A stretch of 64,000 nt of DNA from Cirrosporium novae-zelandiae (lineage: Eukaryota): the NCBI GenBank assembly GCA_026023565.1, contig JAPETS010000008.1, positions 248,001 to 312,000 of the forward strand, given 5' to 3'. Positions 1 through 22,100 of the stretch are shown here, piece by piece; the first letter of the stretch is position 1; the number at the start of each line of letters is the position of its first letter. The position numbers and the translations under genes are program-made. The notes under the pieces were generated by a model, which did not search any database, was not told the origin of the DNA, and saw only the letters and a program-made list of their open reading frames with translations.

Positions 1-231
1 TCAAAGTGTAATATTGATAGCATGATACGTATGTCTTTTAACCTGCACAAGAGTTGTTACCAACTACCAAAAGAAATAGCCAAATGCATTTCGAGATATA
101 TCACTACACTGAATAATATTTCTAGATTCGATGCTCATTTCTCGAAGGACTTTTTAACCTAATTGAACTAGATTAAATGCCTAACACTTATACCTATCTG
201 TACACAGACTACCTCACCAATCTTCACGTCC

Positions 232-1176
232 CAGTTTGTCAAAATGAACTTTAAACCAATTAACTGCCTGTTCTTCTGCCTCCAATCCCTGTCGCTTCTC
301 TTTATCATCTCCTGGTGTCCCTCGAATAGCAAAGCCATGCTTTGTGCCCGGCTAAATTACAACCTGGTTTTCAACATCCTTCTTTTTCCCCTCCAGGACC
401 ACCTTGATTTTATTCACACCTTCTAGATTCAACGCAATATCAGAATCCCTAATAGCCATCGCAAAGGGCTTCGCGATCTTGTTGATTTCATTGGGAATGT
501 CTAGGTCGCCTCGATGTGCAACAAACACCGCATCCACAGTCAGCTTTCCGTTTGCTAGTATCTCGCCGCGTGCGAGATGAACACTAGGCTTACCGCCCCA
601 GCAATACCCTGCCACCCCGAGCGGTAGGTTCGCGGCCTCGTTGTTTCGCAAGGCCGTAAAGAAGGATCGAACTCGTGGCATTGTCATCGAGAATTAGACG
701 AATGCGAAGAAGGGGATAAAGCTTGCTGCTACATGCAAAGCGTAGTGTGTTTATTTCATGGTCATCAACAATAGCATCTCAACTTCAAGCCAGTTACTCG
801 GTCAGTTAGGGAATCGAGAAAACTTACGGTTTCAACATCCAGGCCCAAACCCCCTTCTCATACATGAGTTTGGGAAATAATTCAATAGAGAAAGAGAACA
901 CGCATAGCCTATATATATCCTACCTCAGAAACACACCAAATAAAAACCCAACAACCTCCTCAAAAAACAAAACGTCACCCTCTCTCTCCCTCTCCCACTC
1001 TTTCTCCCACCCAACACACACACGCTTCCTTCAGAGAACTAACTCGCCATCCATAAACTCAGGCACATAAACCCTCCACCCCCCTTTCCTCGCCATTTCA
1101 TCCGCCAAAACCCGACAGTTGGGAAACGTCTATCCACGCGCATCTGGGGATAATCACTATGATTCCTTTTGGAGAC

Positions 1177-1207
<31 letters not shown>

Positions 1208-1313
1208 GAGATATTGATTCGGCCATATATGTGGGAAGACCGTGCAGTTTTATTTCTTGCCCGGATGGCTTACCCATGTGGATGGTGCCAATGAAGCAGG
1301 ATGGACAGAACGT
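232..1313 (-). pseudogene. Dienelactone hydrolase family (alpha/beta hydrolase) pseudogene
   Basis: Minus strand reads FCPSCFIGTIHMGKPSGQEIKLHGLPTY...GIIVIIPDARG*TFPNCRVLADEMA (frameshift) WRVYVPEFMDG, then GVAGYCWGG (nucleophile elbow) and VVI*PGTKHGFA. The start codon position reads ACG. There are at least three in-frame stops and a frameshift. Boundaries approximate. Confidence 0.8.
1177..1208. repeat. (TGT)n microsatellite, about 10 units, read as poly-Gln in the hydrolase pseudogene
   Basis: tgttgttgtt... run is directly visible. Confidence 0.9.
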
Positions 1314-2559
1314 TTTTTTTTTCTCTTTTTTTTCTTTCGGTTAGACGGTTATGGGGGTAATGGTGGGTACGTGGGCAGCGGGGCGTTGGGTAGTCGATGG
1401 GTCAAGGGAAGATAGAGATTTATAAACAAGAGATCGACCAAAAATATATATATATAAATTGCCAGTCAATACAGCAATATAAGAATATCCAAATAGAAAA
1501 AAACTTATATCCCTGAGGGCCAAAGCCATACCAAAGGAAGAAAGGATAAGAAAAAAATAAAATTAAAGAGGCTCTCACTTGGCTTCAAATACAACCTCCA
1601 CATTAGACTTTCCCTCATACATTCATACATTCATACATACATTAGTTCATATTTTAATTCTCTTACTAATTAATCAAAAAAAAGTTTGTTCTCTTTCTTT
1701 CTTTCTTTTCCCCTTTTGCCTTTTTGGTTGTGATGATATTCGGTCGAATTCGGTCGAAAATAAACGTGCTGTAATTATAGCATCATGTAGGAGGAATATC
1801 ATACATCATCTATATCTTTTCTACCTTCCATGCTATGCTATACCATATATGTATAACACTAAATTTTTTAGTGCTTGTGTTGTGTAGTGTAGTGTAGAAA
1901 GATCGGGTTAAGTAGGACTATCTATATCTAAGATATGTGATTAATCAGGAAATTTGGATTTATTCGGCTTCTTCAGCTAGAGTAAACTTCATCTGAATTA
2001 TGAGGATGAGGGTGATCCATCCCTCTTTTTGGGATTTGGGTAGACTGTAGTAGTAATTAGAGAGGAGAAGAAGTAGAAAAGTTCGTGATGTGATGTGTTA
2101 GGCAATAGGCTTTTTGGGACTAGATTTGTTTTTTTGTGGCATAAGAGCATAAGGGGGTGGGTTTTATTATTTTATTGTACAGGTACTATGTGTACTCTAC
2201 TGTATAGGGTAATTAAATATTTTTTGCTTGGATTTAACTAGGTAACTAGGGAAATTTATTGTGGACGTATTTTATCTTATCTTATCTATAAGTGTTTATC
2301 TAGGAGTCAAGTGGGGGGGAGGAGTTATCTATGCTTTCCAATGCTATATATTATTATACGAGTCTTGGAGATTTTATTGCACGTCGTATGTGAAATAGAA
2401 GCCGTTCATGGTTATATTGTGAATATGGGGTGCCTGTGCTTGGTGTTCATAAATTGTTTGATTAAGTTGTTATGGGTTTCAAATACTTATTGTGATTTTT
2501 TGGTCGTTTCAGGGGCGAGGGGGAGCCCGTGCTGTTCACATATACAATAAAGTCGATGG

Positions 2560-3900
2560 GAGGTGGCTTTACCTTCACATTCCGGCCTTTGTCCATATAC
2601 GACGTGACTAGAGGAATATTAAGGTTCGATTAATTATCTCCAGCCGAGCACGTGTGTGTAGATGTCTGGAGCGAAGGCTTCCGTTCTATCGAAGACTTGG
2701 GCGAGGTTGTAGGCACCGATTTGTTTTTAGTTGCAGTTTGTGGTCTCCCGTTAGATGTCTATGTGTATTTGTCTGATTGTTCGTTTGTGTGTGTGTGTTT
2801 GTCTGTGTTGTGTAAAAATCAAGAAAGGGCATGATGACGACGGACCAATTCTTTCATTCTTCGGCTATGCCCCTAGTGGCGTCCCGACCTCCTCGTGATG
2901 AATGTTCTTGAATCTAGCCTCCCCAGCCCGTTTTCTGAGATGTGAACCGGAACAGGAGGATCGGCCAACCTTGTCGCAGCCGGATATGAGCAGCCGCATG
3001 CATCATCTTGACGAATTTGTTGTCGGGGGAGGCTGAGTTGTCTTCGGAGTGGTAGTCCACGTCCCAGTCTTAAAATTCGACCTAGCCTCTGGATTCGGTG
3101 TTACTGTGATGAGAAGGAAGTGTAAGCTTGCGTGATATTGTTAGAAGTGTTAGGATGTAAGGAGGATACTCAACTCATAGCATTGACGCATATACTTTGG
3201 CCAGTCTTGAATAGATCTGCACGTGTACCGAGAATGGATGAAATCAAAGGGAAGTCTTTCGGGTCATTCACTCTTGACGTCGTCTACTTAAATGTGACAT
3301 TTGGTGGCACCCCGCAAATTTTTTCCCCTCTCGTTTTAGCTGGTCCTAATTTAGTTGGGGCGGGAAGGAGTTAAGAAGAAGAAGAAAAGGAAAATTAAGG
3401 AGCACATGTACCATCGTGGTTGGATAAGGGTAATGTCGTTAGCAATCTACAAAGAACTAAGCTCTCAGGTGAGATTTTGGAAGAATGTATAGAATCTCAC
3501 CACTTCGCCCGATTGACTATTTATTAGCTGGGAGCTATGTCAGCATTCTCGTGTTTGGATCAGGGATATGATTATGATTCACTAACCCACCTCTACAACT
3601 CAAATCCTCGTTCCAGTGCCGATGTCCAATATTCGTAAAGGATTTGAAGAAACTGGTGCCAAATGAAGCTTCCCGTCGAGACACAAGGCAATGAGATGGT
3701 GGGTAAGATCAAGACAATCCTGTTGCTTTTCATGATTGGGGAATTGGTAGGCTTGCAATTGTTAAAAAAAGAAAAACATGCAATGAACAGACTATTCATA
3801 AACATACACATTCTTCTCTATAACTATGATGTCGACGGCTATTTTCTCATTTGAAAATTTCCACCCTCGAGCTTATCGATGTTGTGTAACTCTAGATGTT
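2560..3900 (-). pseudogene. SAM-dependent methyltransferase (LaeA/TAM-like family) pseudogene
   Basis: Minus-strand fragments occur in the expected order: TTSISSRVEIFK*ENSRRHHSYRE; AYQFPNHEKQQDCLDLTHHLIALCLDGKLHLAPVSSNPLRILDIGTGTRI*; PNVTF..DDVKSE*; PFDFIHSRY..IQDWPKYMRQCYE; G*VEF*DWDVDYHSED; PLGA*PKNE; HVVYGQRPE. Many stops and frameshifts. The ORF track does not show it. Confidence 0.85.
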
Positions 3901-5250
3901 GAATTTTTGTTAGTAGAAGATGATAGTTCCCTACTGTTTAATGTTTCACATCTATTGTGTAGTTCTTCGCCATAACCAGGATTGTGTTGATAATGCTACA
4001 AATGGACTGGGTATAAAGTGTGATGAAGAGCTATCTGCTAGTAGGGATGTTATGTAAGGATTATGATAGGTCAGATCACCACTTTCAGGCAGACTTAGGC
4101 GTCAACTTCTCTGCTGAATCATATATTGAGCCTCAAATGCGGTAGCCTCGTAATTAATGGGGTGATGATGTATCGGCCGGGAAGATTCCCCAAAAAACCG
4201 TTATGCTGCTAATTATGCCACTTCGCTGCATTGACTGAGCGGTTCCGAGGTTGAAATGTGGTTAGAATTCTAACCTTCAATAAGAGAACCCGAATAACCA
4301 CCAATACCCAGAAGTATCCAGATACACACCATCCCTTTTGTTGACTTACCTTGGTGATTTTTTAATAGCGGACGCTTCGATCGATAGATCTATGTTGCTC
4401 AAATGTACCTGGTGCATTGAGCAGACGGCGGTTTAACCTGAATGGAAAGAAAAATTCTCTTTGTCTACTCACAATTTTTAGCTGCAGCTTTCTCACACAA
4501 ACTACATGCGTCTAGCATATTAATATATGCCGGAAATGACAGGGTAACATAACTATTTGGTCGAAATCCACTTCTTTCTCGAACATGCCCCGAAGCTACT
4601 GGATAAAAAAAGCCTACAGTTATCGTACTTAGAGAATTAAACCCTGGTGGTCCAGTCCTATAACCCAATAACCACCAGCTTGATCCCATCAATTTTCCAG
4701 AGAATAGAGACTCGAAAGCTATGAATGTACATCTACTCAGCTGCCTAGATGGCAGTTCCATTCTCCAGCCCTTAGGGCCCTACCACTCAGGAGCAATAAT
4801 GGAGTGCATGCCCATTGCGCCATTTTTGAAGTCCCCTGAACGATAGAACTCAGTCATGTCCATTCACTTCCTTTCCTTGTTGAAGGAATGAGACATCTGT
4901 GGCGAGTATTCCCTTGTGACTTAGTGAATGAGGAAACAAAGACAAGAGTAGCTTCTTAGTCTTTGGGGTTTAAACGTATCTGCATAAACCTCTCCTCCAA
5001 GAACCAATTTACACCTGTCTATTCTGGATCAGATGACCTGGGATATTGGACGTAATTTTTCACCACTGTGATAGCTAAGCGCGATGGATGCAGCACAGCA
5101 AATTCCATACCTAGGGGGTTTCAACGCTCAGATTTGAACTTCGCGGCTATTTCTATCATGCTGTAAACTGCTTTCTCTTAAATCTTACACTTATATAGCC
5201 CCAACGTTGACTTGAAACTTCTTGCGACAAGAACAAGATTAAGCAACGAG

Positions 5251-6427
5251 ATGCCTACCGACAAACTGAAACTTGACCGAAATATCCTCGCAAGTTATGG
5301 CATCATATATGTGGAGAGTATCATCTTTAACCACGCAATAGAGGATGTCCAAGGTAGTAGAAATACCTTGAGACTACCGAGACATGTTGATTTATTCAAA
5401 GAGGCTCTCTTGGGCTTTGGCCGTTCAATACCCATATTTTTTAGAAAGTACTTTGAGAGTCACAGCAATAACAGAGCTACTGCCCCCAGGGTCTGCATAT
5501 TTTGAAGACTGTGGAATTCTTTCGGACTCTAAGTCTGCAACAACTGTTGCTAGAAACTATATTGAAGAGAATGAAAAGATTGCAAAGATAGCGCAGAATT
5601 ACACATACGCAAATGCGACAGAAGATACCTGGGCACATTTTATGCAGACGAATATTTTCAACACGTTCGAAGAAGCATACCCATCAATGAAAGAAGACGA
5701 GTAAGTGATTCAAGCCAGAACTTGATAATTTAATATTATGGCGCTAACGGCCCAATGAAGGAGTTTGTTCGACTGATGGTCCTTGTGTGCTACCCAAAAA
5801 TTATTTTCTAAGATATCAAAGCTAAAAATAATTTCAGGGAGAGCAATATTCACTGGAACGAGGCTAAAAAGTACGCCAACTTCACTCCTAATATAAGACA
5901 GCCAACAGGCCCAAAGCCAGACTTCACATGGATTTTCAACCAACAAGGACCTTTCCCAACTTCTCGGAGGCTTTCGACATGAGGAGTCAGCGGAAAATTT
6001 TTCACTTGAGGTCCTTGCAACGCTCCGCTCCAAAGGCCTCGTTTCTTCTCCCCTATCCGCCACAGGTGATATTGAAACCTGTATTCTTCCAGTAGTGGCC
6101 TTCACGTGTATTGGCCTAGAGGTCCGAGTATGGCTGGCTTATACCTGTACAAAAAGGGTCCAATCTAATTGTCATGTATAGCAGTCCTCTCCACTTTAGG
6201 CTGAAAATATTTTGCTAGAGCTATTGTAGAAAATGGTGTGTATCTGGAAAGGCACCCTTGAAACTACCTGGGGAGTAATGGCAACCCACTGCATTGTTAA
6301 AAATATGCAGCTGTGGGCATCACGAGTTTTAAGACTAAAGATTTCCTTTTACGTCAGCCAAATCCGCTGGAAACTGCAGAAAAATCTCCCTATCAACGAC
6401 TCCCCTTTACCGAGCACTGGTCGTTAG
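5251..6427 (+). pseudogene. Disrupted fungal hypothetical protein gene
   Basis: ORFs 5212-5505 and 5384-5704 overlap as if joined by a frameshift. There is a GTAAGT donor at 5701, then further coding-like fragments (PKPDFT, FSLEVLATLRSKGLVSSP, PVVAFTCIGLEVRVWLAY, MVCIWKGTLETTWGV) broken by stops and frameshifts. No function recognised. Confidence 0.45.
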
Positions 6428-6999
6428 AGCTCCTCAACCCAAAAGGACTCCGTCCGAAATATGCAGCATATAAATGTCACTAATGAGGATATCTCAATTA
6501 CCCCAGTTTCAGAAATTCCTATCCGAGGAGCTCCTGCTTTTGTTTCTTCCCCTAAAGATCTAAAGGCAGTTAATTTTAATCCTGAGATGCTTAAAAGAAA
6601 GATATTGACGCCGAAGACGCAGATGGGGGCCTTGACATCTCCCGGAAAATCATTTTCTCGTCGTTCAAACATTAACGCTTTCCAAATTCCTATTCATGAT
6701 TCTCTCGTTTCCTGTCCTTCTTTTCAGGCAACACTAGCTACGGGTAGTCCCTCGCAAAATTTACCAGGTGCAAGCGCGCGAAATATACCGCCAACAGAAA
6801 CCCTAGGGCCAGGAAAATCCTTTCTGAGGAGCTGTCTTCCAATACTTTCAATTTCGATTTTAATCTCAAGAATAGCAAGGCGCCAACATGTCATATCAGC
6901 CAGAAAAATGGCATAGAATTCATAAAATACCTCTCTTCATTAAAGTTTGACAATAGCCAGAAGCTAAAACATGAAGAAGTTCAAAGTACGAAGATTCCA

Positions 7000-8067
7000 G
7001 TGGCTTGCGCCTGGTCTCCCATACAGGACACGATGAATCTAGGAGGGCCCGCATGTAAAAGGGCTAGACTACTTCGGCCTCTGACCCCACTCCAACCCAA
7101 GCCTGAAATTGATGCCTGGTTGCTAACTATAACTAAAGCCTCGAGAAACGATGACAAAAGGAAGAAGCTCACTCAGTCTACAAAGGAACCACAGCTCGAC
7201 GAAATGAGGCGTTCGGCTGAAGATAATCACAGTGAAAATGTATTTTACTCGAGCTGTTGGGATGATAAAGGTGTTGAAGTTAGCTCTGATGAAGCTGATC
7301 TTCACGGCGCAGATATAGATGAAGATGAAGATAAAGCAAGTGAAGACGCGTCAGTCTCCCTTCATTACTATATATATGACATGAAGGATCCCTACACCAG
7401 ATGGCTCGATCCATCTATATGGTCAGACTGCGAAAACGATAGTTTCGATGACGGTTCCTCCATCACTTCAAAATCTGAAAGCGAAAGTTCCGACAACCTA
7501 CTTTCAGATTCCGATGACGATGCGAGTGAAGATAGCTCAAAATACGAGTACGAGAACAGTCTTTCAGAAGTATCTATGCACGCCCTCGAGTCAAGAGCAA
7601 CCGAATTTCTGTGGGGACCCGAGATTATCCAACTAAACGTCACGCTGAGTATGATCAAAACGTTGACCAGCACTTCCCTCGTTGATACTACCTGGAAAGC
7701 ACTAGAGCTGTGAAAAGACCATGAAAAAAGATGCAAGAACTCCTTGAGAGTTGTTTTTCTAATGTATATTCTCTAGGAAATAAATAATGTCTTAGGACTC
7801 AGTGGCCGTAACGCGATAACGTACGACCAGTTCGGGTTATTGCAAGAAAGGTGGGAGTTGGTGGATAAAGCACTGCATATTTTGCAGGACACGGATTTAG
7901 ATAGACTGAGGGGGTTGTTGAAAAAAGCTATTGCGTGCTGGGACGGAAAGGCATTCATGAATATTCTAGGGCCGCTGTCGCCAGAAATACATTGGTATGA
8001 GGGGTGGTCGGGTATAGGAGGAGAGGCTTTGAATATCTTGCTCTCGGGACATATTGGTCCCCTGTAG
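7000..8067 (+). CDS. Acidic low-complexity hypothetical protein, possibly the 3' part of the disrupted gene upstream
   Basis: 237-aa D/E/S-rich ORF at 7000-7713 plus a downstream ORF at 7840-8067 after a possible acceptor near 7777. No domain recognised. Confidence 0.3.
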
Positions 8068-9232
8068 TATTAATAAGTAGTTGGGGAAACACACACTTAA
8101 ATAACAACTCGTCACATGTTAATAAGTCTTACATGGTCCCATCATGGTCCCATTAAAGATTTTTGCTTTTTTTCGAATTATATTCTGTTTGGCGCCCTAG
8201 ATACTGGTCCCTTTTTACCGAGCAGTAATACTACCGCTATTACTACAGTCAGCATGCAGACTTCGTATCTCGTCATTAGCTATTGACGTTGCATAAGACT
8301 GAGAATTACAATAACGGAAAGGATTTTCTAACAAACCTCGAAGGGTGAGCGCAACCCATGATAACTCAGAAACTCCTGAGTCAGAAAGTTAAAAAGTTAT
8401 TCAACTTATTGCGGGGAAATTTCCGCAAATGATTGGAAGCAATTGAGATCCATAAGCCGCCAAGACATAAAGCCTTCAAGGAGATCTGTTTCCTAAAATA
8501 CTGTTTGTGTAACCTTGGTTGAAGAAAATGTGGAGTACGTGGACACAGGCCCGTCATCTTAGGAACCTAGAACAGCTTCACGGGCTACAGAGAACGATAA
8601 TAAGTAATAGTAGCTGCCAATTAGATCACAATGATGGGTTCGTGTTTCAAAGTTGTGGCGATGATTTTTAAGAAATATATTAGCTGTGCTGGATAGGATG
8701 GTCGTTTGCTTGCTTTTGGTTTACCCCGGATAGCGTTTTAGGGCTAGGGCTTACCCGTACCGATGGGATGACTAGTGGCGTCCGTGCAGTCTTACTGCGT
8801 ACTCCTGCATTCCTTTACGAAATTGACATACAACGCCCTTCTGTATTCCCCTCATGCGCCAAGTTTATTTGTAGGTTTGTAGCTAGCAGGGTCATGGCAG
8901 CAGACTGGAAGAAATTTCGGTGTATTCCAGGTGCCTGCTGCACCACTGTTCCTTGCCTTTATATCATGTCTGTTAAATCCTTCAAGAAGTCGATGACGTA
9001 ATGTATTCTACCCCAACTCATCCTCTTGGGGAAGTAATGATACTGGTCGATGAAGAACGGAGGAGCAGGCATTATTGACAGGAGATTGCGTGACTGGATT
9101 GGATAGTTCTGAGTTGCCCCGATGGAGGTCTCAGTTCGATACACACACCTGATAGTCAACTTTATAGAGGCTTGGTGGCCGCTTTTTTGATAACACGATA
9201 GATAACAACTCGATGCAGATTTCTGGCTTGAC

Positions 9233-10885
9233 ATGACTTCCTCTGATAAAGATCCATCCGGCGCGGCCAATGATGACGACTGGTCAACCATTTCTGATCG
9301 CATGTCACGAAAGAGAGTTCAAAATCGACTGGCTCAGCGAAATTATCGTATGCTTCAGGGTCCTTATAGTCAACGCTATTCTTGTACAATGTACTGATAT
9401 AATTTAATTTAGGGAAGAACCTCAAAAAGCGTATCGAGGAGCTAGAACGCCAAGCTGCAGCAAGATCCGGCCCTGATGCTAGCAATGCTAGCCTTGCAAT
9501 GCCCGTCTTAGACCCTACAGCATCGAGCATTGCCTTCCCATCTATACCCAATTTCTTTCTTCATCCCTCTCAGGTCAACTATGATATGACGTATGGACCG
9601 GCCGCATTTCAGTTATCAAAGTTTGTACCACAGTCCTACCATCAAGTCTCCCATTCCCAGGGTCCAGAGATGGTAGCTCAATCTCAGGTTCCCAAAAACC
9701 TAGCTTACGATATAAAAAGTGGAAATGCTCCAAATTTATCCATTAGTCCCTTCACAGACAGCGCCTTTTCGACATTGGGGACGGATTCAAGCAATGGATC
9801 GGGTATCAATCAAGCCTCATTAACTGGTGATATATTGTCGAGTAGGCCTATTTTTAAGGTATTTTGATCTCGGCTATAGAGCACTAATATGCTGCAGATG
9901 ACAGTGAAAAGAATGAAGTGTCTGCTGGTTCTGCAGCTGTCTCCGTGGTAGCGTCGACTGCTACACCAGATGCGGAGAGGAGCACTCTAGTCGCAACGGC
10001 TAGCGATATTGACTGGCACACAAGCTCTATCTCGGACAACAATGATTTTCCTGGCACACCACAGATTAACCCCTTGCCTCTCGAAACGTTCGTTCCTACT
10101 CCTCCATGGAGTGCCACGAGCGATCAGTATGCAGGATCTGAAGAGAAAAGCAGGACACGAAAAGACCAATGCTGTTCGCCAGCTTCTCAATCCCAAATTG
10201 TGCTCGAACACCACGTTTCTTCTGAGGAAACCGTACTCGAATCCCGCGGTGGCTCGAATCGGGTTCTCCCAGGTAGTGTGGGTCTGACGGAACAGCTCGA
10301 ACATGTGCTAGAAAACATCCATCTCTCAGGCTTCGATGGCCTCGAGAGCGTTGTATCCAAATACTACACCTCCGACTTTAGCTCATCCCCAAGGCTGGCC
10401 AGTACTCGACGACATAGCCGTAACCGAAGACTGCCCGGTGTCCTCTCCGACTTGCGTGAGAGCATGCCCACTTGGACTGAATGGGAGTCCCAGGGGTACA
10501 AAGACGAGATCCTCAGATCGGCGGAGAGCATCTTGGTTGCCGAGCGCAGGAACCTTAGCTCAACCCCGCAGTTTCAGGACTTCCTCATCAAGTCTAGGAA
10601 AGATCATGACCCGCGCTCATCCCCGTCCCTTGCAGAGATGAGCAGTATATTAGAGAATGAGGTAAGGTTCAATAACAATTTCGCAAGCTTCTCCGAGGTA
10701 AGCTAATGATTTGCAACTAGTCGCCAAACCTATGGGCGCTGATCACATCCTTAACCACAGATGGATTTGCAATCAGGCAAGCAGATTTACACTTGACACT
10801 CGCCGCAATGTCGATATTATACTTTTCTGGGAAAACATCCAAGGAAGAGCTCCGTGTGTGGGTAGACCGCTGTCTACGCGACTAA
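9233..10885 (+). CDS. bZIP transcription factor (4 exons)
   Basis: ATG at 9233 gives MTSSDKDPSGAANDDDWSTISDRMSRKRVQNRLAQRNY, then intron 9348-9412, then RKNLKKRIEELERQAA. This is a fungal bZIP basic region plus zipper. Further introns lie at about 9859-9897 and 10662-10720. The last exon reads SPNLWALITSL...CLRD*. Confidence 0.85.
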
Positions 10886-11646
10886 TGAGCGTGCTTACCA
10901 GCATCGCTATATAGATTCCCAAACTCCTTCTTAACCCAAGTCTATACATTCACAGTGCACCATCCCATGCCTTTCAGGGCTCTACACTTGCTAGCTGAAC
11001 TAGAAGTCGAAATGCCGTAACGTCCGTATATATAGGATTGTATCAATGTGGAGGTCTAGATCCTAGTTGCAGGCGTGCTGTTACCGCCTGCCTCAAAAAA
11101 GTATATAGTGATCGGTTAGCATCCCAATAACATTACTGCGCCAAACGCAATTTAGACTTGGAAAAGATATATAGACAAGGCACGAACGATTTACACAATT
11201 GAACCCTTCACTGAGGAATTTTTGTTACCAATGTGACTTTCCCTTGCAACGGTTTACTTATTCTAGATAAGTTTTCCTGACATCTTCCTCTTTCAGCACA
11301 AACTTATGGCTACGAATTACCAAATAAGTTTCCTTTGGCAGAATTCTCTAACCCCGTTTTAAATGTATGCAACTAATAATAACCTTCTCTAGGACATATA
11401 TACCTTCTGCCGCCACACTTTTTGGGGACTGCCAAGGCAACAGGGCCTCACATAGCCTCCTTGTCCAATACACAACGATTGAGCCCATTATGCACACGAT
11501 ATATCATTTCAAACAAAGATCTTATTCCTTACTTTATCATCACTGTAGCTCATCATCATTGCTACTACTAACAGCCAGCCCCCACAAGCCAAATTAAACA
11601 TACCTTTTTGTCCATGCATCGACCGCGGGAATTTTCAACGTGGATT

Positions 11647-13623
11647 TCACGGCAGCATCATCGGAGCGGGACTAACTGGGGGGAGCTCGTAGCGTTCTTC
11701 GGCATCTTGATTGATGTTGCCTTCGCTCGGGTAGGATGGCTTGATGTCCGAAGCAGCGGTAGTAGTGGCCAAGCCGGCGTCGTTTTCTTTTTTATCCAAA
11801 TAAAAGCTTTTTGCTCCAATTGTGTCGGCGTAATCCTCTTCTGTTGACGCTTCACTAGTAGTATGCATTTCGTTGCCGTTCTTGTGGTTTCCATTTCCGG
11901 TCCCCCCTCCGATTTCCGAGGGTACTTTATCGCGCGGTTCTGTTGGGACTGGACTCGGTGGCATGCGTTCTGAGAATGCGGTACTCGGGTCCGGTGGAAA
12001 CTCCAAAATTGGTCTGATTGATGCTGATGCGGTTCCTTCATCTAGAAGAAATTTCGTTAGCTGGAAGGTCTTTCTAAGAAAACAAGCAAATATAGAGATC
12101 GAGACCAAACACATACTCGGACCAATTTTTGGGCTATAGGACAAGTCAATGGTGACAATGGGATTGACACCTGCAATCCTCCGAACATGCGACACATATA
12201 CTGCGCTCATGAGATGCGCAGGGACGCTATGGTCGTCCAGGTTCGACGAAAGCTCCTCCATCCGCTTCTTCCCTTCGATAAAGTCAACAGCTTCCCAGAG
12301 AATCCCGCGCTTAACATTCTCGGAGTAGATTCCCGGCAGCTGTGCATCATAGCGGCGGTCAAGATCGGCGACGGAGTACGTGGTTAGTGGTTCCTTCTCG
12401 CCGAGCAGATCACAGTTGCGGAACACATGCACCTCGAAGTGGTTATCGGTTCCGATCTTGGCCGTGCTAGGCTTCGATCGATCATGCTTGTCGTTTGCTT
12501 GCCGCGAATCGATGACTACCGTTTGAAACGGCCCGCTCTTGATCTCGTGGAATTCGTGCTTCACCCGCCCGATCCCCTTGTACAGGTCCGGTCCCGGCTT
12601 CACCCAGCTGCGTCGGGTGAATCCGTTGTGCTGCAGGTTGACTTGCGCCAGAGTGATCGGTTGGTTGTCCTTTATAAAGGATATTTGAAGGGCAGCATCG
12701 ATTTCGCCGCATGCGACCATCAGCTGCTCGAGCTCCTCATCCGTGTACTTGCACGAATTGGAATAATTTTCTGCTCCAAATACGCGCATGTAGTCGTCGT
12801 ATCCGAAGCACTTCTTAAAGCCATTGGGCATCACAAAGCTACTCACAACCTCTATTCTATCTGGCTTCTTTTCGGCCGTCCACCCCGCTTTCACAAACCG
12901 GTATACCATATCCAGGAAGTGGTACCCGCTATGAGAGACTTTCCCATACCCGGTATTGAAGGCGTGGTACCTTTGGTCTACAATTTCTGTTGGGAGGCGC
13001 CACATACCGTCGCAGTGAGTCGAGATGATGTTCGTCACAGGGCACCCTGACTTGTCTGTGATCTCTTTGAGCATCTCAAACGTGCAGTACATGCCCGGGT
13101 GGTATCGCCGGTGGCTCGTGATGAGGAAAAATGTTTCACGACGACGCTGGAGTTCCAAGTACGCCGACCGTAGATCATCATAATCCTTGGCGATTCCGTA
13201 CGCTTGTGCAATGTTCGTAGTGACTCCCTCCCGCGTCGTGATGGGCTTATCCATAATGGCATTGAGCCCCTGGCTGATTGCCCACAAGCCATAAGCTTTA
13301 TGCGCGAGCGGCTCGGTGCTAATAACAACACAGGATATTCTCAGCTGAACAGTCAATTTGTTTAGCTGGCTGGCCACGGCACCTGGCATCTCGCCCTTGA
13401 ACATAGGAACAAAGAAAAGCTCGAGACCCGGAAACACGCGATCACGGTACTCTGTGATTGCCGCACTATTCGGTTCGACATCGATGGCGCATACAAGTTT
13501 AGCTCGGCCTTCAGCTTCGAGTGCTTTCAGGTGTGGTATGTAGATTCGTTTAGCATGGGGACCCACGCCTACGAGGAGAAACCGTATTGGCTCTCGCTGC
13601 TCTGTGGTAATCATCTCCGACAT
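11647..13623 (-). CDS. Gfo/Idh/MocA-like NAD(P)-dependent oxidoreductase with a low-complexity C-terminal tail
   Basis: N-terminal Rossmann motif FLLVGVGPHAKRIY, VISTEPLAH, DKP (EKP-equivalent) and SHSGYHFLD. One in-frame 75-nt intron at 12042-12116 (GTATGT...CTAAC...TAG). Likely start is MSEMITT at 13623. Confidence 0.7.
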   Translation of the reverse strand: MSEMITTEQREPIRFLLVGVGPHAKRIYIPHLKALEAEGRAKLVCAIDVEPNSAAITEYRDRVFPGLELFFVPMFKGEMPGAVASQLNKLTVQLRISCVVISTEPLAHKAYGLWAISQGLNAIMDKPITTREGVTTNIAQAYGIAKDYDDLRSAYLELQRRRETFFLITSHRRYHPGMYCTFEMLKEITDKSGCPVTNIISTHCDGMWRLPTEIVDQRYHAFNTGYGKVSHSGYHFLDMVYRFVKAGWTAEKKPDRIEVVSSFVMPNGFKKCFGYDDYMRVFGAENYSNSCKYTDEELEQLMVACGEIDAALQISFIKDNQPITLAQVNLQHNGFTRRSWVKPGPDLYKGIGRVKHEFHEIKSGPFQTVVIDSRQANDKHDRSKPSTAKIGTDNHFEVHVFRNCDLLGEKEPLTTYSVADLDRRYDAQLPGIYSENVKRGILWEAVDFIEGKKRMEELSSNLDDHSVPAHLMSAVYVSHVRRIAGVNPIVTIDLSYSPKIGPSMCLVSISIFACFLRKTFQLTKFLLDEGTASASIRPILEFPPDPSTAFSERMPPSPVPTEPRDKVPSEIGGGTGNGNHKNGNEMHTTSEASTEEDYADTIGAKSFYLDKKENDAGLATTTAASDIKPSYPSEGNINQDAEERYELPPVSPAPMMLP

Positions 13624-14350
13624 GATTCGGGTATTCGAGGGGCGTATACACCGTAAGCTGTACCTAAGCAAGGACTGATCAAGGAGTTTATTTGTGGGGT
13701 ATTGAAGGTTCCTGAAACTTTGAGATTGAAATGGCAGAAAACACCACAATCGGCTGATAAAGGATGGTTATTAGGAGCGATAAGAGCTTGGGATCAACAA
13801 AGTATCTGTATTCGAAGCGGGAGGCATAATACAACCGTCTCGTGAGAAGCCTCAGATCGACATGATCGATGTACGACATATGTCAGGGTTTACTTAACAA
13901 GAGAAACCTGTAGCAGCATATTCTAATGCCGCTGTGGAGTGGTAGTCGACTTAGAGTGTCTTAGAGCTAGCTCACATAAAGTGCAGGTAAGCCAGACTCC
14001 CTCTATCATGATAGAATGCTCTCGGTCGTAGTAAGAAGGGGGGAAAGCAGTCGATGGACATTCCAACGTCAGAAACCAGTAAAATGACATAATACATGGA
14101 TTAGATGAAAGTTAAGAGATTGAAAGTGGTAGCCATGGATAGATGAACTAGGAAAAAGACAGTAATGCCTTATTACAGGGTTACTGTTATTTCGGGGGTA
14201 ATGTATCACAGTAAGACAGTCAGAATAGTCAACCGGACAGTAAGTCGACTGTACAAAGCTGAACGTCCCCACCAAAACTTCCTGCGGGGAGCATATTGCG
14301 CCTAGTTCGTTGGATTATTCCTTAGACCTGTCCCACAAAATAAATCCGAA

Positions 14351-16446
14351 ATGACAAGTCACGATATCGTGATTCAATCGAACAAAGGTGAAGGTAAAGT
14401 GGCAAGCCGCATGATAATCTCTGTGAATGTTGTTAATGCTCACTCGCAACAGTATGGTTTGAATGCTGCTGGCAACTCTACGAGAATCCCCAACGTCTTT
14501 CGGCAGACCAGTCTTGGCAGTCTCTCGATGTCGTGTTCAAAGTAAAATCGCACTCTCCCGCCGTCTCGCAGTTAGAAAACTATGCTACCGACGCTTCTGT
14601 CTTGTTTTCTGGAGCTCAGGGAGGTCTGGAACAAGTCACTCCTGAAGGATTGGGTTCCGCTGCAGCGTTTCAGTTCCTCCACCAATGTCTTCGCGCAGCC
14701 AAGACTGCTCCCTCTGGTCGCGAATGTGTTGCCAAGCTTATTGTTCCCTTGATCAAGGGCCACATCGTACGGTCCGACATTGTCCCTCTGCGTTTCTTGG
14801 ACTGTGAATGCGTGGAATCGGCATTATCCTTTGCAGAGCCTTTGCAGTTCTATCCCGGACATGCTATTCCAAAAGACAAGTTCGATCAGCTGGGGGAATT
14901 GTTCTCCGCATCTGCTGCTGGGCTGCTCCTTCACGGCGAATCCGAAGATAGCCTGGGTATGAGCACCCGAGCATCATCGCCCATTGTAGAGGCAGAACTA
15001 GAGAATAGATTGTCTTTTCCATGGATGATAGAGCACCCCCCTTCCCGACGAACATTAGCTATCGTCGAGGGTAGTCGCGTTCATCCAGACAACGGGGGCA
15101 CAGGTCCCGGAATCTATCTTGCCGCCAAAGCTCTAGGTATCAACATGGTCGTGTTAGACAATGCCGGACACTGGCTCCAAGGACCCGAATATGCACACTG
15201 GCGCGAAGCCTTTATCCCCACAAAGCTGGTCGATCCACCAGACGCTGACTTTACCAACCGCATCATTAACTCAATCCGCTCATATGGCAAACAGGTAGAC
15301 GGAATCGTAACTTTCTGTGATTCTTACATGGTCCACATTGCCCAGGCCGCCCAGGAACTAAGTTTACCAACATCCGTACCAGAAGCCTACGAAATCGCAA
15401 CAGACAAATATAAAACCAGCGTCTTTGAAGGTCACCACGCATTCAGGGCCTCCAGCGCTGAAGAAGCTGTCGACATCGCCACAAAAGAGAACCTCGCCTA
15501 CCCACTCATCATCAAGCCCTGTAATGGCTGGAGCTCCGAGGGCGTCTTCCGCGTCGACAACCTCTCCTCGCTTACATCGGCCGTCCGCTCCATCGACACC
15601 ACTCGCCACGGCAAAGAGTTTGTCATCGAGCGATACTGCGCGGGGCCGGAAGTTGACGTCAACCTCGTACTCCTAGACGGGGAAATCCTCTTCTTCGAAG
15701 CATGCGACGATTTCCCCAAGGGCGCCGACATTAATAGCAGTGATGGTTCCAGCGCAGCCGCCATCTCTACACGCACCTTCATCGAACTCAACAGCGTCTT
15801 CCCTTCGGCGCTCCCAGACGAAGAACTCTCGCTCCTCCGCACCTCCTTCCACAACTCTCTCCTCCGCCTGGGCCTCAAGTCCGGAATCATGCACCTCGAA
15901 GGCCGGGTCGACCGCTCCACTGTCGAATACTGCACTCAAAATGGTATAATGGATCTCCATCCCCTCCCTAATCCAAATCCCAATCCTCCTTCCCCCTGGC
16001 TCATCGAAATCAATCCCCGCCCCCCAGGAATGAAGGGAACCCAAATAATCGAATCCACCCACGGCATCGACTACTGGGGCCTTGCGATGCTAATTTCCCT
16101 CTCTGACACCGCCCGCACCCGTGCTCTCTCTCATTCTTACAAGAATGGCCCCCAGTACACCTGCATCATGGTTTTCATCCCTGCAGACTACCCCCTCTCC
16201 TCCTACACAGAAGGAATCTTTGACTCAGACGATATCTGTGCGGAGCTACTAGCACGGAGGCCTGATATTGCTAAGCATATCAGCCGCTGTGGGTGTCTGG
16301 TGAAAAGGGGCCAGAAAGTGCCACATCCCAGTTCGGGTGTTAACAGCTTTTTGGCATATTTTAATGTGTTTTCAAGACGGGGGAGGAAGGAGGCATTGGA
16401 GGTTGCGAGGACGGTTAGGGAGGAGGTGAGGTTTGCTTTTCGGTAG
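14351..16446 (+). CDS. ATP-grasp ligase of the L-amino-acid-ligase type (similar in organisation to fungal FsqD/AnkG-type enzymes)
   Basis: Exon 1 at 14351-14393, intron at 14394-14452, exon 2 to 16446. Motifs: TDKYKT, YPLIIKPCNGWSSEGVFRV, FVIERYCAGPEVDVN, MHLEGR, LIEINPRPPG. Confidence 0.85.
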
Positions 16447-17344
16447 AGAGGTGGGGTTTTAAGGGTGTGAGGAGGGGAAAAGGAGGTAGGGTAAGCAGCA
16501 ATAAGCCTATAAGTTGAAACCTATTAAGGTAGACCACTAGATAAAAAAACAACAATCATTTTTTGTAACCAAGAGAGATGATCTATTCCACCTCGTTAGT
16601 TAAACGTGGAATGCACTGTACGGCTTTTCTGATTTTTTTATGTGTATTTCTCTTTTTATGTTTGTCGGCCCTTAATGTGATGAACAGACAGAGCGAGGAA
16701 TATTTGATCCCTTTCTTTTCTTAACAGTCTTATCTATGACGTATCAAGATAGACTTCTCGATACTTTCAAAAGTACGCTAACTAGAGTCGCCAAGGTGAG
16801 GTCTTAGCAGTCAGATAAGGAGGCCCTTTGATAACACAGCCTTACTATCATACGCACACATTTCAGATATTCTTTTCAGGAAAATAATGGCAGCTTATGC
16901 AACAAGAAAATGAAGTTTTTCCTTAGTCTATCCCTTCTATAAAGATTATGTCGTTGCTCTTTTTCAAATATATAGGTCAGGGCTTAGATTGAAACGACTT
17001 CGATATACCGGCCACCTCCTTTAGTTGGAGAAAACATAGTCTTTGACATATACAATAGGCTTTCGCATCTCTATTTAGATCGGTTTCCAACAAGTTCATC
17101 TTCCTCACAATACTTATAATTAACCACAGAACCTAATGTCCATCATAGCCCGAAGGCGACATGCGGACAATAAAATGAATCATCAACTACAGAACCTGGA
17201 CCTGTGCATAACTCGGATCCATACTCCAAATGCAGAATTATGCACATAAACCAGAAACAATGTCTTACAGCGAGCTTGAAAATTTCTGTTCGGGAATCTA
17301 TCACCAGAAACCCTTGTCAAAATTATCCTACTAAGCTTAGCTAT

Positions 17345-18526
17345 CTAGGAGCTCACTAGGCTTTTGATCGTATCCTTTAGATCCTCCTTTGGCAACCCCA
17401 ATAGATCGTTGGCCGCTTCTTCGTCTGAAACGGTAGACAGTCCACTTCCATCAATAAGCAAGTAGGCTTGCAGGAAGTTGATAAAGGATGAGGGATCTTT
17501 TTTGGCGAACTTCTCCTGGCCCATCTTGTATATATCACCGGCGCTTCCCTTCTGAATATCCCATTTTGTGCCAGTGACTTCTTCGAGGATAGATATAAGT
17601 TCATTCTGTGTCGTTGTGAACGATTTCACCCACAAATACTGATTAGCTGTCTTGTCAGGAAGCTCGAGGATTCGAGAGACTGCACGGCCGATTTGGGCCA
17701 CGGTTGTTGTGGAGAATGCCTCATTTCCGGAGTCATAAATCGTAGCGCTGTGAGTAGGGACGTTAAGGCCTAGCATTTGGCGTTTTATGCCCTGGTAAAG
17801 AGAGTATTAGTTAAGAGATTAGTTTTCGATAAGCCAAACCAAGCTAGGGGGTCGACTTCGCTCGAATGCCTCCTGGATATTTCTTGCTTAGAACTAGCCG
17901 TCAATCCTTAATGAACCTTTGCATATTCTCGTGGCACATCAAACACATCCCTCAAGAAGAACAGGGTCCAGCTTGATTCGGTTTATTCTGAACGGTGAGA
18001 AAGTAGGAGAGTTTCATACCCAGTCAAAGAAAGGGCCTGTCGCCAAAGCAGTCCAACTGAAGCCTGGGTTTGTGCTTGCTTTTTCCTTCAGGTAACTCTG
18101 TATTGCTACCTTGCCACCTAGCATAATGCTTAATTCAGGTGGCAGAGGCCCCGTAGTATTGATACCGTACTCGCTTGGTATGAAGCGTTTCACTCCGGCA
18201 TCTACAGCTGCATCGATGATCGTTTTCTGGAGGGGTACTACCATACTTGCAATGGTCGACACAACTGCATCCTGGCCAGTAAATTTCTCCTTCAAAGAGT
18301 CGGGACTGTAATCTGATTTCAAGACGGTTACACCTTCAGGAGCAGTTGAATTTGAACTTTCTCGGGACAAGACCGAGATTTTGAAGTTATTGGAATCAAG
18401 GAGTGCTTTGACAATGTGAGGTCCCAGGTTTCCGCTAGCCTATGAAGTATCAGGAGCAAGTTCTCAATATATATAAATCAAAATACGAACGCCTCCGAGA
18501 ACAATCACGTTCTTAATAGTAGTCAT
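17345..18526 (-). CDS. NmrA-like / isoflavone-reductase-like NAD(P)-binding protein (3 exons)
   Basis: MTTIKNVIVLGG, intron, ASGNLGPHIVKALL (GxxGxxG); also GQDAVVS, AGVKRFIPSEYG, WTALATGPFFDW, intron, ...STTTVAQIGRAV. Confidence 0.88.
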
Positions 18527-19125: not shown

Positions 19126-22100
19126 ATGAATACCTCTTCGCCATTATTACCGTTCCCATCGTCCTTTGATCCTGCCATCTGCCTTCATTCCGATTCAGAT
19201 ATCAACCAACCCAGCACGCGTATTACCCCTCCAAGCTCCGATGATCTAGAGGCGTTACATATTGTACAGGCAGAGACAACCAAAGACAGGAATAGAAAAG
19301 GCATTGTTATACAACATCGAGCTTGGAAAATTGAGGAGGTGTTTAGAAGCGACGAGGATCATTTGCAAGGTGTGTAGTTCCCACTGCATTTGTGTTACAG
19401 GGCAGGGCTGACACTATGTAGAAACTCCTTTGAAGAAACATAGCGTCTTTACGTCTATAGAATTTAACCATCCCCTTCATCAAACTTTCCCGTCCTCGCC
19501 GCCCTCAATGGCCCCTCTATCTTCGCCTATCGCTTACCCTCGGAGTTCCTCACCTGCCTGCGCCCCAAAACGAAGAGATGGCCCAAAGCATGCTGCACCG
19601 GAGCCGAAGCGGCAGAAGATGCTGGGTGGCTTTATTATAGATGATGACGATGACGATGACGAACCCATTGAGCATAATAAAGAGCCGAAACAACAGAAAA
19701 CACTAGGCGGCTTTATTATAGATGATGATGATGAGGTAATGGCAGATGATAGGGAGACTAGCTTAGATGGACCGCTTGTTTCGCAGCAGCAATCGTCGTT
19801 CCTTCAACCTTCAAGTAGTCCATCTATTTCACGCCACCTATCTCCCTTTGCCCAGAATGATCGCACTCAGTTTGCTCCACCCAGATCACTAGCACCTGAC
19901 TTCAGCCAGTCTACCCCTCATCATTATGGAACGGGAAAAATCACATTGAAAACTAGTTCTGGTAAGACTTATGTGTGCCAAAAATGCAAGGATTCTGCTC
20001 CAATCTCGTACGAAAGACTTGTTGCCGATAGGTCCAAAACCAAAGAAGGAAGAGCACAAAAGAGCTATTACGGAATTGACGTGCATCGGCTTATAGACGA
20101 TGCCGCCAAGGATATCGAACGTAGCCGACGTGAGGCATTGGCGAGAGATCAAGATGCGTTTCTCACTGGTGTCGAAAATCTTATGGCTGTCGATCAACGA
20201 GGAGCTCCCCGAACCTTGATGTGGACTGAAAAATATCGTGCCCGCAAATTTACAGATCTTGTTGGAGATGACCGAATGCATCGGTCCGTATTGCGCTGGC
20301 TCAAAGGCTGGGACCCAATAGTGTTTCCCGGTCTAGAACAGCGTAAACCAAAGAAACGTGTCTTCGACGACAATTCTGAGGATAGACCTTTTCGCAAAAT
20401 CTTGCTCCTTGCCGGACCACCAGGGCTTGGGAAAACAACCCTTGCTCATGTGTGTGCAAGGCAAGCGGGCTATGAAGTCGTGGAAATAAATGCTAGCGAC
20501 GAAAGGAATAGGGATGTTGTTAAGGGTAGAATAAGGGACAGCGTGGGAACTGAAAATGTCCGAGGTGTCAATATTGAGACTGTGAATGGTAAAGTCAGAA
20601 AAGCAGGCCGCCCGGTTTGTGTTGTGGTTGATGAAGTGGATGGAGTTGTGGGTGGATCTAATGGAGGTGAAGGGGGTTTCATGAAAACATTAATTGATCT
20701 TGTCATGTTGGATCAGAAGAATTCTAAAGATAAGGAAAAGAACTCCTCATCTAAAAGAAAAAAGAAAGGGGATAACTTTCGATTACTCCGACCCCTTGTC
20801 ATGATATGCAATGATGTCTATCATCCAGCCCTTCGGCCACTGCGTTCATCTGGTGTTGCTGAAATTATTCACGTTCGAAAGCCACCTCTTGACAGAGTTG
20901 CAACCCGTCTGAAAATCATCTTTGAAAAAGAGTGCGTGCCGTGCGATAATGATGCTGCACGGAGAATATGTGAATTAAGCTGGGGTATCAGTAGCGGAAG
21001 GGAGGACCGTGGCAAGGGTGGGGGATCTGGCGAGGGGGATATCCGAAGTGTCTTGGTAACAGGGGAATGGGTTGCTGCAAAACTACGGTCCTTGAAAGTG
21101 CCTAGGTTAACTAAAGGATGGGTTGAACAGCAGATGTCTAATAACCTTTCTTCCGGTGAAAGTGGTGCAAGAGGCCTAGGGAGAGGTTCTATCCGCGAGA
21201 TTGTAGACCGGGTCTTTCTCGAAGGAGGAGGGTTTCCAAAGGCCTTCCATGTTCCATCGGAGATGCCTATTCTCATAGACCCTACAGTCAAACTGCATGC
21301 ATCGGAGCCAGCAAAACGCGCAACCATGTACAGGTTAAGAGAAATGGTTGATACCAGTGGCGACTATGATCGAATTGTTACGGACTGCTTCGGCTCATAT
21401 CCCAACCAAACATTCCAAGACGACACTCTCCTTTCTAAGCCTAACTCGGCTTACGATTGGCTCGATTTCCATGATAGAATATCTGCAAAGGTTTATTCCC
21501 AGCAAGAATGGGAACTTAATCCATACCTGAGTCAATCCGTATTAGCTTTTCATCATCTTTTTGCTTCACTTGGTCAAAGTACTCTTGGTGCCGAAACGCT
21601 AGCATACGGCAAAGACGAGACAGAAGAACCATCTCCATTCTCTGGACCAAGAGCCGACTTCGCTGCTCGTGAAGCAGAAAAGGAAAGCCGATCCGTCCTT
21701 CAAGGATTTCAGTCATGTCTTTCAGCTCCACTTCTACGCACTTTCCGCTCGTTAGACGACATATCAACAGACCTTGTGCCACAGCTCTACCGCATGCTGT
21801 CTCCCAATGTAAAGCCAATTGTGGTTGGCGGTAGTGGTGACCAGCGGGGAATCGCCAGCGTAAGGAGAGAGACGGAAAAGGATATGGTGCAAAGAGCCGT
21901 GCGCGTTATGTGTAGCGTTGGCGTTGTTTTTGAGCGGACTAGGATTGAAGATGAGAGAGGCGGGTATGGTGGATTCATTTTCAGAATGGAACCGTATGTC
22001 TTTTATCCTTTTTTCCTTCTCGGCTTTGAAGAGCCTGATTAACCCGCTATTAGACCCCTCGATACCCTCGTCACCTTCCAGACAGCCTCTTCTTCGAGCA

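Follow-up and report, generated by a model that had tools for sequence, protein, structure and literature searches.

A putative small metabolite cluster without a classical core synthase in Cirrosporium novae-zelandiae: a bZIP-like gene linked to a Gfo/Idh/MocA-fold dehydrogenase and an ATP-grasp ligase

The DNA analysed in this study is a stretch of 64,000 nucleotides from Cirrosporium novae-zelandiae (contig JAPETS010000008.1, positions 248,001 to 312,000; hereafter the window), a fungus assigned by taxonomy look-up to the class Xylobotryomycetes, and the genes of interest are four intact genes with ordinary fungal introns at positions 9233–18526, the models of which were read from the DNA. 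The first, on the forward strand, codes for a bZIP-like protein of 490 amino acids (aa) (9233–10885; exons 9233–9347, 9413–9841, 9898–10661 and 10721–10885). The second, on the reverse strand, codes for a 633 aa dehydrogenase of the Gfo/Idh/MocA fold, termed OX throughout (13623–11647; exons 13623–12117 and 12041–11647), and the third, again on the forward strand, for a 678 aa ATP-grasp ligase, termed ATPG (14352–16446; exons 14352–14394 and 14453–16446, separated by an intron at 14395–14452). The fourth, a reverse-strand gene with two introns, codes for an NmrA-like protein of 300 aa (18526–17345; exons 18526–18491, 18439–18020 and 17791–17345). OX and ATPG lie head-to-head on either side of a 728 bp intergenic region (13624–14351) presumed to act as a bidirectional promoter, while the remaining two pairs of neighbours, bZIP-like gene with OX and ATPG with NmrA-like gene, are each tail-to-tail. 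These models agree with a first-pass annotation of the same sequence, which had described four intact genes in these orientations, with OX and ATPG head-to-head across some 730 bp, and had reported the window to be devoid of polyketide synthase (PKS), nonribosomal peptide synthetase (NRPS) and terpene synthase genes; none was found when the open reading frames (ORFs) of the window were scanned with Pfam. The annotation had gone on to propose that all four genes constitute a small biosynthetic pathway, and it is this proposal that is evaluated below.

The ATPG product is letter-identical to the NCBI protein M1834_009183 of C. novae-zelandiae, and scored above the relevant cut-offs with three Pfam families: ATPgrasp_N (61.2 bits; cut-off 27), ATP-grasp_4 (30.6 bits; cut-off 27) and Dala_Dala_lig_C (32.3 bits; cut-off 24). 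When a profile built from 21 members of the family was compared with PDB sequences, the top match was the Bacillus L-amino-acid ligase BL00235 (3VOT; E = 2.6e-19), with BacD next. The AlphaFold (AF2) model of ATPG, with a predicted local distance difference test (pLDDT) value of 85.1, retrieved 3VOT, BacD/YwfE and RizA among Foldseek ranks 1–7, the best match having an E value of 5.6e-24 and a template-modelling (TM) score by target of 0.77, at sequence identities of 16–20%. Residues K369, P370, E407, E533, N535 and R537 were invariant in the 21 family sequences, and K369, E533, N535 and R537 are taken to represent, respectively, the lysine of the K-P motif, the E-x-N motif and the arginine that follows it, presumably the residues that engage ATP and magnesium. 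In its sequence, modelled fold and conserved motifs, ATPG has the character of a carboxylate-amine ligase of the L-amino-acid-ligase type. The comparison with AnkG drawn in the first-pass annotation is off, because PMC12568646 assigns Cp1B and AnkG to another class, one that is glutathione-synthetase-like. Preceding the ATP-grasp core is a confidently modelled, beta-rich N-terminal domain of approximately 200 aa (residues 1–215; window 14352–15000), for which structural matches in the Atlas were confined to the same fungal family, the members of which carry the name 'carnosine synthase 1'. The family is a wide one, with 330 matches among the candidates scored.

The OX gene contains a single in-frame intron of 75 nucleotides (12116–12042), and the C-terminal ~130 aa of its product form a low-complexity tail. 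A tblastn comparison with the orthologue from Glarea lozoyensis was unbroken over residues 7–516 at 71% identity. The Pfam score of the protein with GFO_IDH_MocA (PF01408) was 22.7 bits, just under the cut-off of 24; an orthologue from a metagenome locus described below scored 28.8 bits, and the same family was precomputed on most of 120 listed OX homologues. No significant match to PDB sequences was obtained and no NCBIfam family fitted. The AlphaFold model (pLDDT 86.8), by comparison, retrieved glucose-fructose oxidoreductase, aldose-aldose oxidoreductase and scyllo-inositol dehydrogenase with Foldseek (E ~1e-17; TM by target 0.72–0.77; ~12% identity). Residues D125-K126-P127, together with many histidine, aspartate, arginine and tyrosine residues, were invariant across 24 fungal and prokaryotic sequences, and the DKP triplet stands where the EKP motif of the Gfo/Idh/MocA family, with its catalytic lysine, is assumed to lie. 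On the strength of model and sequence, OX is a divergent protein of the Gfo/Idh/MocA fold belonging to a separate, uncharacterised subfamily that is also present in bacteria and archaea. Some public records of its fungal relatives invoke cytochrome P450: the G. lozoyensis model EPE26982 (1059 aa) joins an OX orthologue to a cytochrome P450, while OX homologues of ~500–570 aa from Apiospora kogelbergensis and Colletotrichum scovillei bear the name 'cytochrome P450' with no P450 domain listed, a label that in these two cases looks like annotation carry-over.

In the bZIP-like protein, a basic region at the N-terminal end (RKRVQNRLAQRNYRK) is followed by a very short zipper, and the C-terminal part is a conserved domain without a Pfam family. 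The protein sequence reads NRLAQRNYR, which we take to fit the N-x7-R/K signature of bZIP basic regions, followed by LKKRIEELERQ, so that there are at most two heptads ahead of a proline. None of the exon pieces matched a Pfam family, and exon 1 alone gave no bZIP_1 match; the same family scored below threshold (16.4–20.1 bits; cut-off 27.6) in four of five full-length relatives. Because the second intron has a weak 5' site (GTAGGC), the junction between exons 2 and 3 is uncertain. The C-terminal domain characterises a large fungal family: an exhaustive HMMER search with it (exon 3, window 9900–10661; residues ~300–437) yielded 622 representatives at E ≤0.001, and a word-index search with exon 3 among longer proteins gave none. 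Many of the listed members are only 130–280 aa in length, and either lack the basic region or are fragments.

Conservation of gene linkage in other fungi was assessed from the order of accessions and locus tags, numbering being assumed to follow gene order, and from a single metagenome scan. ATPG and OX homologues have consecutive numbers in Trichoderma asperellum (TrAFT101_004842/004841), T. evansii (KAL6901273/KAL6901272), Stachybotrys elegans (KAH7309181/KAH7309182) and Glarea lozoyensis (EPE26983/EPE26982). They are six locus tags apart in Colletotrichum acutatum (CaCOL14_008882/008876), C. tamarilloi (CTAM01_01218/01212), C. orchidophilum (CORC01_13115/13121) and Bogoriella megaspora (M1820_001859/001865), and five apart in C. 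simmondsii (CSIM01_12427/12432). Four further pairs occur on contigs of equal size (67,391, 47,992, 18,794 and 5,020 bp), equality of size being a strong hint, and only that, that both genes share one contig; the smallest of these has hardly any room beyond ATPG and OX. In the metagenome scan, conducted by tblastn with the four window proteins and covering 17 loci, OX and the bZIP-like gene were matched on one locus only, L003. The order there is OX (75% identity; 65–1552), a BAHD/TRI-type acyltransferase, a bZIP orthologue, ATPG (53% identity; 10001–11962) and an ATP-binding cassette (ABC) transporter, with OX and ATPG on the same strand and 8.4 kb between them.

The bZIP-like gene was likewise found to be a recurrent neighbour of OX, orthologues with the same two-part architecture being present near OX not only on L003 but also in Xylaria cf. 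heliscus (KAI0472516/KAI0472513, three accessions apart) and Pyrenula (Q9160_001303/001296, seven locus tags apart); one additional bZIP relative resides on a contig with the same size as that of an ATPG homologue (116,400 bp). Taken together, at least ten named genomes from four classes (Xylobotryomycetes, Sordariomycetes, Leotiomycetes and Dothideomycetes), as well as L003, have ATPG and OX in proximity, while the OX/bZIP pairs add Eurotiomycetes; the classification of three of the species was looked up. In other respects, little gene order is retained from one of these classes to another. The accessory genes (ABC transporter, acyltransferase, P450) vary from species to species. No informative result was obtained when the 728 bp intergenic region was scanned for CRE, AP-1, YAP and PAR sites, or when 9-mers common to the promoter of the window and those of L003 were sought.

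The first-pass annotation had suggested comparing unrelated taxa for linkage of the ligase with the oxidoreductase, and had listed the bZIP gene as a member of the cluster: both suggestions stand up well, the enzyme genes being adjacent in four genomes, five to six tags apart in five and 8.4 kb apart on L003, and the bZIP-like gene being a conserved neighbour of OX at three loci. The divergent arrangement of ATPG and OX, which it had suggested looking for in other taxa, is not conserved: orientation was read in the window and on L003, and the two genes share a strand on the latter. Inclusion of the NmrA-like gene was not supported. The protein concerned is an ordinary member of its family (NmrA, 69 bits against a cut-off of 27; NAD_binding_10, 61 bits; GGASGNLG glycine motif), and tblastn revealed no homologue at any metagenome locus (17 in all), L003 with its 14.6 kb included. 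In the absence of conserved linkage, this gene may at most code for a lineage-specific tailoring reductase, and is possibly a neighbour only.

The relatives of OX outside the fungi were then considered. Ninety-five bacterial and archaeal relatives were recorded at 31–47% identity, of which 80 were kept. In a FastTree phylogeny of 109 sequences, all 37 fungal rows fell on one side of a branch with an SH-like support of 98, and a single origin in fungi is therefore indicated; the direction of transfer is not shown by the tree. The most frequent neighbours at the 80 prokaryotic loci were a GT28-like glycosyltransferase and a polysaccharide deacetylase (15 loci each), a TauD dioxygenase (13), a 2-hydroxyacid dehydrogenase (12) and a NUDIX protein (11), followed by a thiamine pyrophosphate (TPP) enzyme, a radical SAM/SPASM protein, a methyltransferase and a thymidylate-kinase-like protein at nine loci each. 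A recurring same-strand operon was observed on L041 (7219–16007), L046 (9049–16090), L029 (5759–11427) and L038 (9123–16785), with genes in the order WYL regulator, TauD dioxygenase, 285-aa protein without assignment, OX, 2-hydroxyacid dehydrogenase, GT28-like glycosyltransferase, polysaccharide deacetylase, radical SAM/SPASM protein and methyltransferase; an APH-type kinase or PIG-L deacetylase is sometimes included, and DNA-methylase or DUF2357 genes may lie alongside. By analogy, the logic of this operon recalls aminoglycoside or cyclitol pathways. The family was also seen to extend to bacteria of the CPR and archaea of the DPANN groups.

The interpretation that best accommodates these data is that the bZIP-like gene, OX and ATPG (9233–16446) constitute the conserved centre of a small cluster for specialised metabolism in the Pezizomycotina, one that operates without a PKS, NRPS or terpene synthase, a reading considered moderately probable. 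In such a pathway the bZIP-like protein would turn on the genes of the cluster. OX would carry out the NAD(P)-dependent oxidation of a hydroxyl group on a precursor related to sugars, cyclitols or hydroxy acids, a preference suggested both by its fold family and by the genes for sugar handling that surround its prokaryotic relatives. ATPG would activate a carboxylate as an acyl-phosphate and join it to an amine, one partner being an amino acid and the other either the product of OX or a molecule that OX modifies subsequently. In other species the ABC transporter may export the product, and a P450 or acyltransferase may tailor it. The interpretation offered by the first-pass annotation is accordingly retained for the bZIP-like gene, OX and ATPG, the linkage of which recurs across classes, and set aside for the NmrA-like gene.

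A number of observations weigh against this interpretation. Both the order of the steps and the substrates of the proposed pathway are purely a matter of inference, and the window offers no transporter, P450 or acyltransferase as a partner for the cluster. In T. chlorosporum, ATPG and OX are on different small contigs, a result that is either uninformative or negative. Prokaryotic OX homologues had no ATP-grasp gene near them at any of the 80 loci when searched by tblastn, and none of 895 flanking ORFs proved to be an ATP-grasp gene in a search with an alignment profile; the pairing of ATPG with OX is therefore fungal only. Within the available flanks, OX was present at only one of the five informative metagenome loci that contain ATPG relatives (L002, L003, L005–L008 counted once, L009 and L013), and it follows that many members of the ATPG family work without OX. 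Finally, in a FastTree phylogeny of 116 ATPG sequences the ten OX-linked rows were scattered rather than confined to one clade: they require two changes, which is no better than random placement (equalled in 100 of 500 shuffles), and 103 rows carry no label. As far as these sequences indicate, the association of OX with ATPG would be either old or assembled more than once.

The settings in which other ATPG relatives occur do, on the other hand, point to a habit of secondary metabolism in the family, in favour of the preferred interpretation. On L002 (1890–13837), the proteins of which are nearly identical to those of Aureobasidium pullulans in the ATPG tree, the ATP-grasp gene is accompanied by a Zn2Cys6 factor, an FsqF-like A-T-R NRPS-like gene with a class-V aminotransferase domain, and an ABC transporter. 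The near-identical loci L005–L008 contain an A-T-C NRPS, a major facilitator superfamily (MFS) transporter and an aminotransferase beside the ATPG relative. An ABC transporter also adjoins the ATPG relative on L001, as it does on L003, and the ATPG relatives on L009 and L013 are without obvious partners. A comparable arrangement is described for T. hamatum in PMC3726867, where genes for an NRPS-like protein, an ABC transporter and an aminotransferase lie beside an ATP-grasp relative.

Of the competing explanations, the one that survives best is that the conserved genes constitute a catabolic or salvage cluster for an environmental compound, such as a sugar or cyclitol conjugate, rather than a route to a secreted metabolite. 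The top Foldseek matches of OX are sugar and inositol dehydrogenases, as Gfo/Idh/MocA enzymes typically are, many of these enzymes are catabolic, and it is established that fungal catabolic clusters also unite a regulator, a transporter and enzymes. Such a role is difficult to reconcile with ATPG, since an ATP-consuming carboxylate-amine ligase is an anabolic enzyme with relatives in NRPS-type clusters, and the accessory genes found elsewhere are of kinds characteristic of secondary metabolism: an ABC transporter of the exporter type, a BAHD/TRI acyltransferase and a P450. Catabolism is consequently regarded as unlikely.

It was also considered that the locus might be the remnant of a fumisoquin-type cluster, in which NRPS-like and other genes have decayed at 1–8 kb leaving the ligase orphaned. 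Members of the ATPG family do occur beside FsqF-like genes, as on L002, and the upstream flank, where the first-pass annotation had placed a run of pseudogenes and which may hold decayed genes or repeats, is low in G+C (0.41–0.44 over positions 1–9200) and contains short ORFs only, without recognisable genes, 18 of the 19 ORFs at 1–8 kb having no Pfam family and the other a marginal match to dienelactone hydrolase (352–693, reverse strand). What tells against decay is the absence of the fragments that it would have left. Seventeen proteins taken from L002, L003 and L005, among them the NRPS-like proteins, the ABC transporter and the acyltransferase, matched nothing in the window by tblastn at E <0.06, and Pfam scans of the window returned no AMP-binding, PP-binding or reductase ORF, so that an FsqD-type arrangement with an FsqF-like neighbour was not encountered. 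Moreover, ATPG and OX recur without an NRPS on the 5,020-bp contig and are direct neighbours in four other genomes. With no fragments of NRPS-like, ABC or acyltransferase genes to support it, this explanation was rejected as very improbable.

The least credible explanation, that four genes of unrelated function are neighbours by chance, draws on the NmrA-like gene, which lacks conserved linkage, and on the failure to find a promoter motif common to the window and L003, and is largely refuted for bZIP, OX and ATPG, though not for the NmrA-like gene, by a linkage that recurs across fungal classes and is therefore hard to ascribe to chance. A mycosporine-type cluster was also considered, and was dropped in the absence of any DDGS/EEVS-like or O-methyltransferase ORF from the Pfam scans of the window.

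The remainder of the window is occupied by genes of a different character. An ORF at 19412–22039 matched AAA and Rad17-P-loop families, which fits a tentative assignment as CTF18. Beyond it, 20 ORFs of at least 130 aa at 22–61 kb were, by Pfam, all either of housekeeping type (ETF-alpha, Upf2, thiamine pyrophosphokinase, a BCKD/PDH-type kinase and Tsr1/Bms1 among them) or without a family. Two ORF pieces at 59388–60696 on the reverse strand carry ABC-2 type transporter membrane domains, and are probably parts of one ABC-G transporter gene some 41 kb from the cluster.

Returning to the preferred interpretation, that the bZIP-like gene, OX and ATPG probably define a small and so far uncharacterised metabolite pathway without a classical core synthase, a broader and more doubtful extension of it may be entertained. 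This would see the three genes as representing a widespread, unrecognised core-less class in the Pezizomycotina, in which an enzyme of the L-amino-acid-ligase type makes an amide scaffold by joining an amino acid to a partner of sugar, cyclitol or hydroxy-acid origin, the latter supplied by a new Gfo/Idh/MocA subfamily with a single origin in fungi. Since prokaryotic relatives of OX lie in operons resembling those for aminoglycosides or cyclitols, the fungal pathway may even have arisen around a gene of bacterial provenance.

The literature, subscription-only papers aside, yielded no account of an ATP-grasp ligase clustered with a Gfo/Idh/MocA enzyme in a fungus, and PMC4855365 contained nothing of relevance. 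Standard cluster finders would pass over this locus because PKS, NRPS and terpene enzymes are what they look for. Amide ligases that stand alone are uncommon in fungi: according to PMC12568646, only a handful of putative ATP-grasp enzymes had been reported from fungi, and the one validated biochemically is Cp1B, from the E-64 pathway. A module of ligase, dehydrogenase and regulator found in Trichoderma, Colletotrichum, Stachybotrys, Glarea and lichen-associated fungi would, as two enzymes and one regulator, be a compact target for heterologous expression, and would offer a route to the function both of the FsqD-type ligase family and of an uncharacterised dehydrogenase subfamily, that of OX, which bacteria and archaea also possess. 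It does not overturn expectations, ligase-based fungal pathways being already known.

The closest of these known systems is the fumisoquin (fsq) cluster of Aspergillus fumigatus. FsqD and the FsqD-like proteins of Clonostachys rosea appear to belong to the same family as ATPG, a placement made through the L002 relative and published descriptions rather than by comparison with FsqD of A. fumigatus itself. ATPG shares 56% identity with the ATP-grasp protein of L002, the gene for which is divergent from the A-T-R gene and adjoins the ABC transporter, in keeping with the arrangement of FsqF (A-T-R-P) and FsqE as set out in PMC12568646 and PMC5999785; with a family member from C. rosea it shares 59%. 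FsqD itself is described as not biochemically characterised in PMC12568646 (legend to Extended Data Fig. 2). The window differs from the fsq cluster in having neither an NRPS-like partner nor genes of the FsqB, FsqC and FsqG types, and in having a Gfo/Idh/MocA-fold partner in their place. The clusters for E-64 (cp1/cp2, with Cp1B) and NK13650 (with AnkG) share the same underlying logic: each is a small cluster of fungal genes that relies on a stand-alone ATP-grasp ligase, rather than on an NRPS, to make the amide scaffold. By the same account (PMC12568646), Cp1B and AnkG are glutathione-synthetase-like, were annotated as hypothetical, and could not be matched by sequence identity to any other ATP-grasp enzyme so far characterised. 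The window, for its part, lacks the Fe/2OG epoxidase and ANL amide synthetase of those clusters, and its ligase is of the L-amino-acid-ligase type.

At the level of the individual enzymes, BL00235 (3VOT), BacD/YwfE and RizA provide the best profile and fold matches to ATPG, with which they share the ATPgrasp_N and ATP-grasp_4 domains, and chemistry proceeding through an acyl-phosphate to an amide would be expected; at 16–20% identity ATPG remains distant from these bacterial ligases, and its additional N-terminal domain of ~200 aa is limited to the fungal family. OX in turn has the two-domain fold, with a probable N-terminal Rossmann motif, of glucose-fructose oxidoreductase, aldose-aldose oxidoreductase and scyllo-inositol dehydrogenase, from which it differs in being only ~12% identical, in being ~130 residues longer with inserts, and in possessing DKP rather than EKP. 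At the level of the cluster, a further parallel is provided by the kojic acid cluster of Aspergillus oryzae, which consists of the kojA oxidoreductase, the kojR regulator and the kojT transporter: built from other protein families and without a ligase, it is nonetheless also core-less, comprises few genes, and joins an oxidoreductase that acts on a sugar-derived substrate to a regulator of its own.

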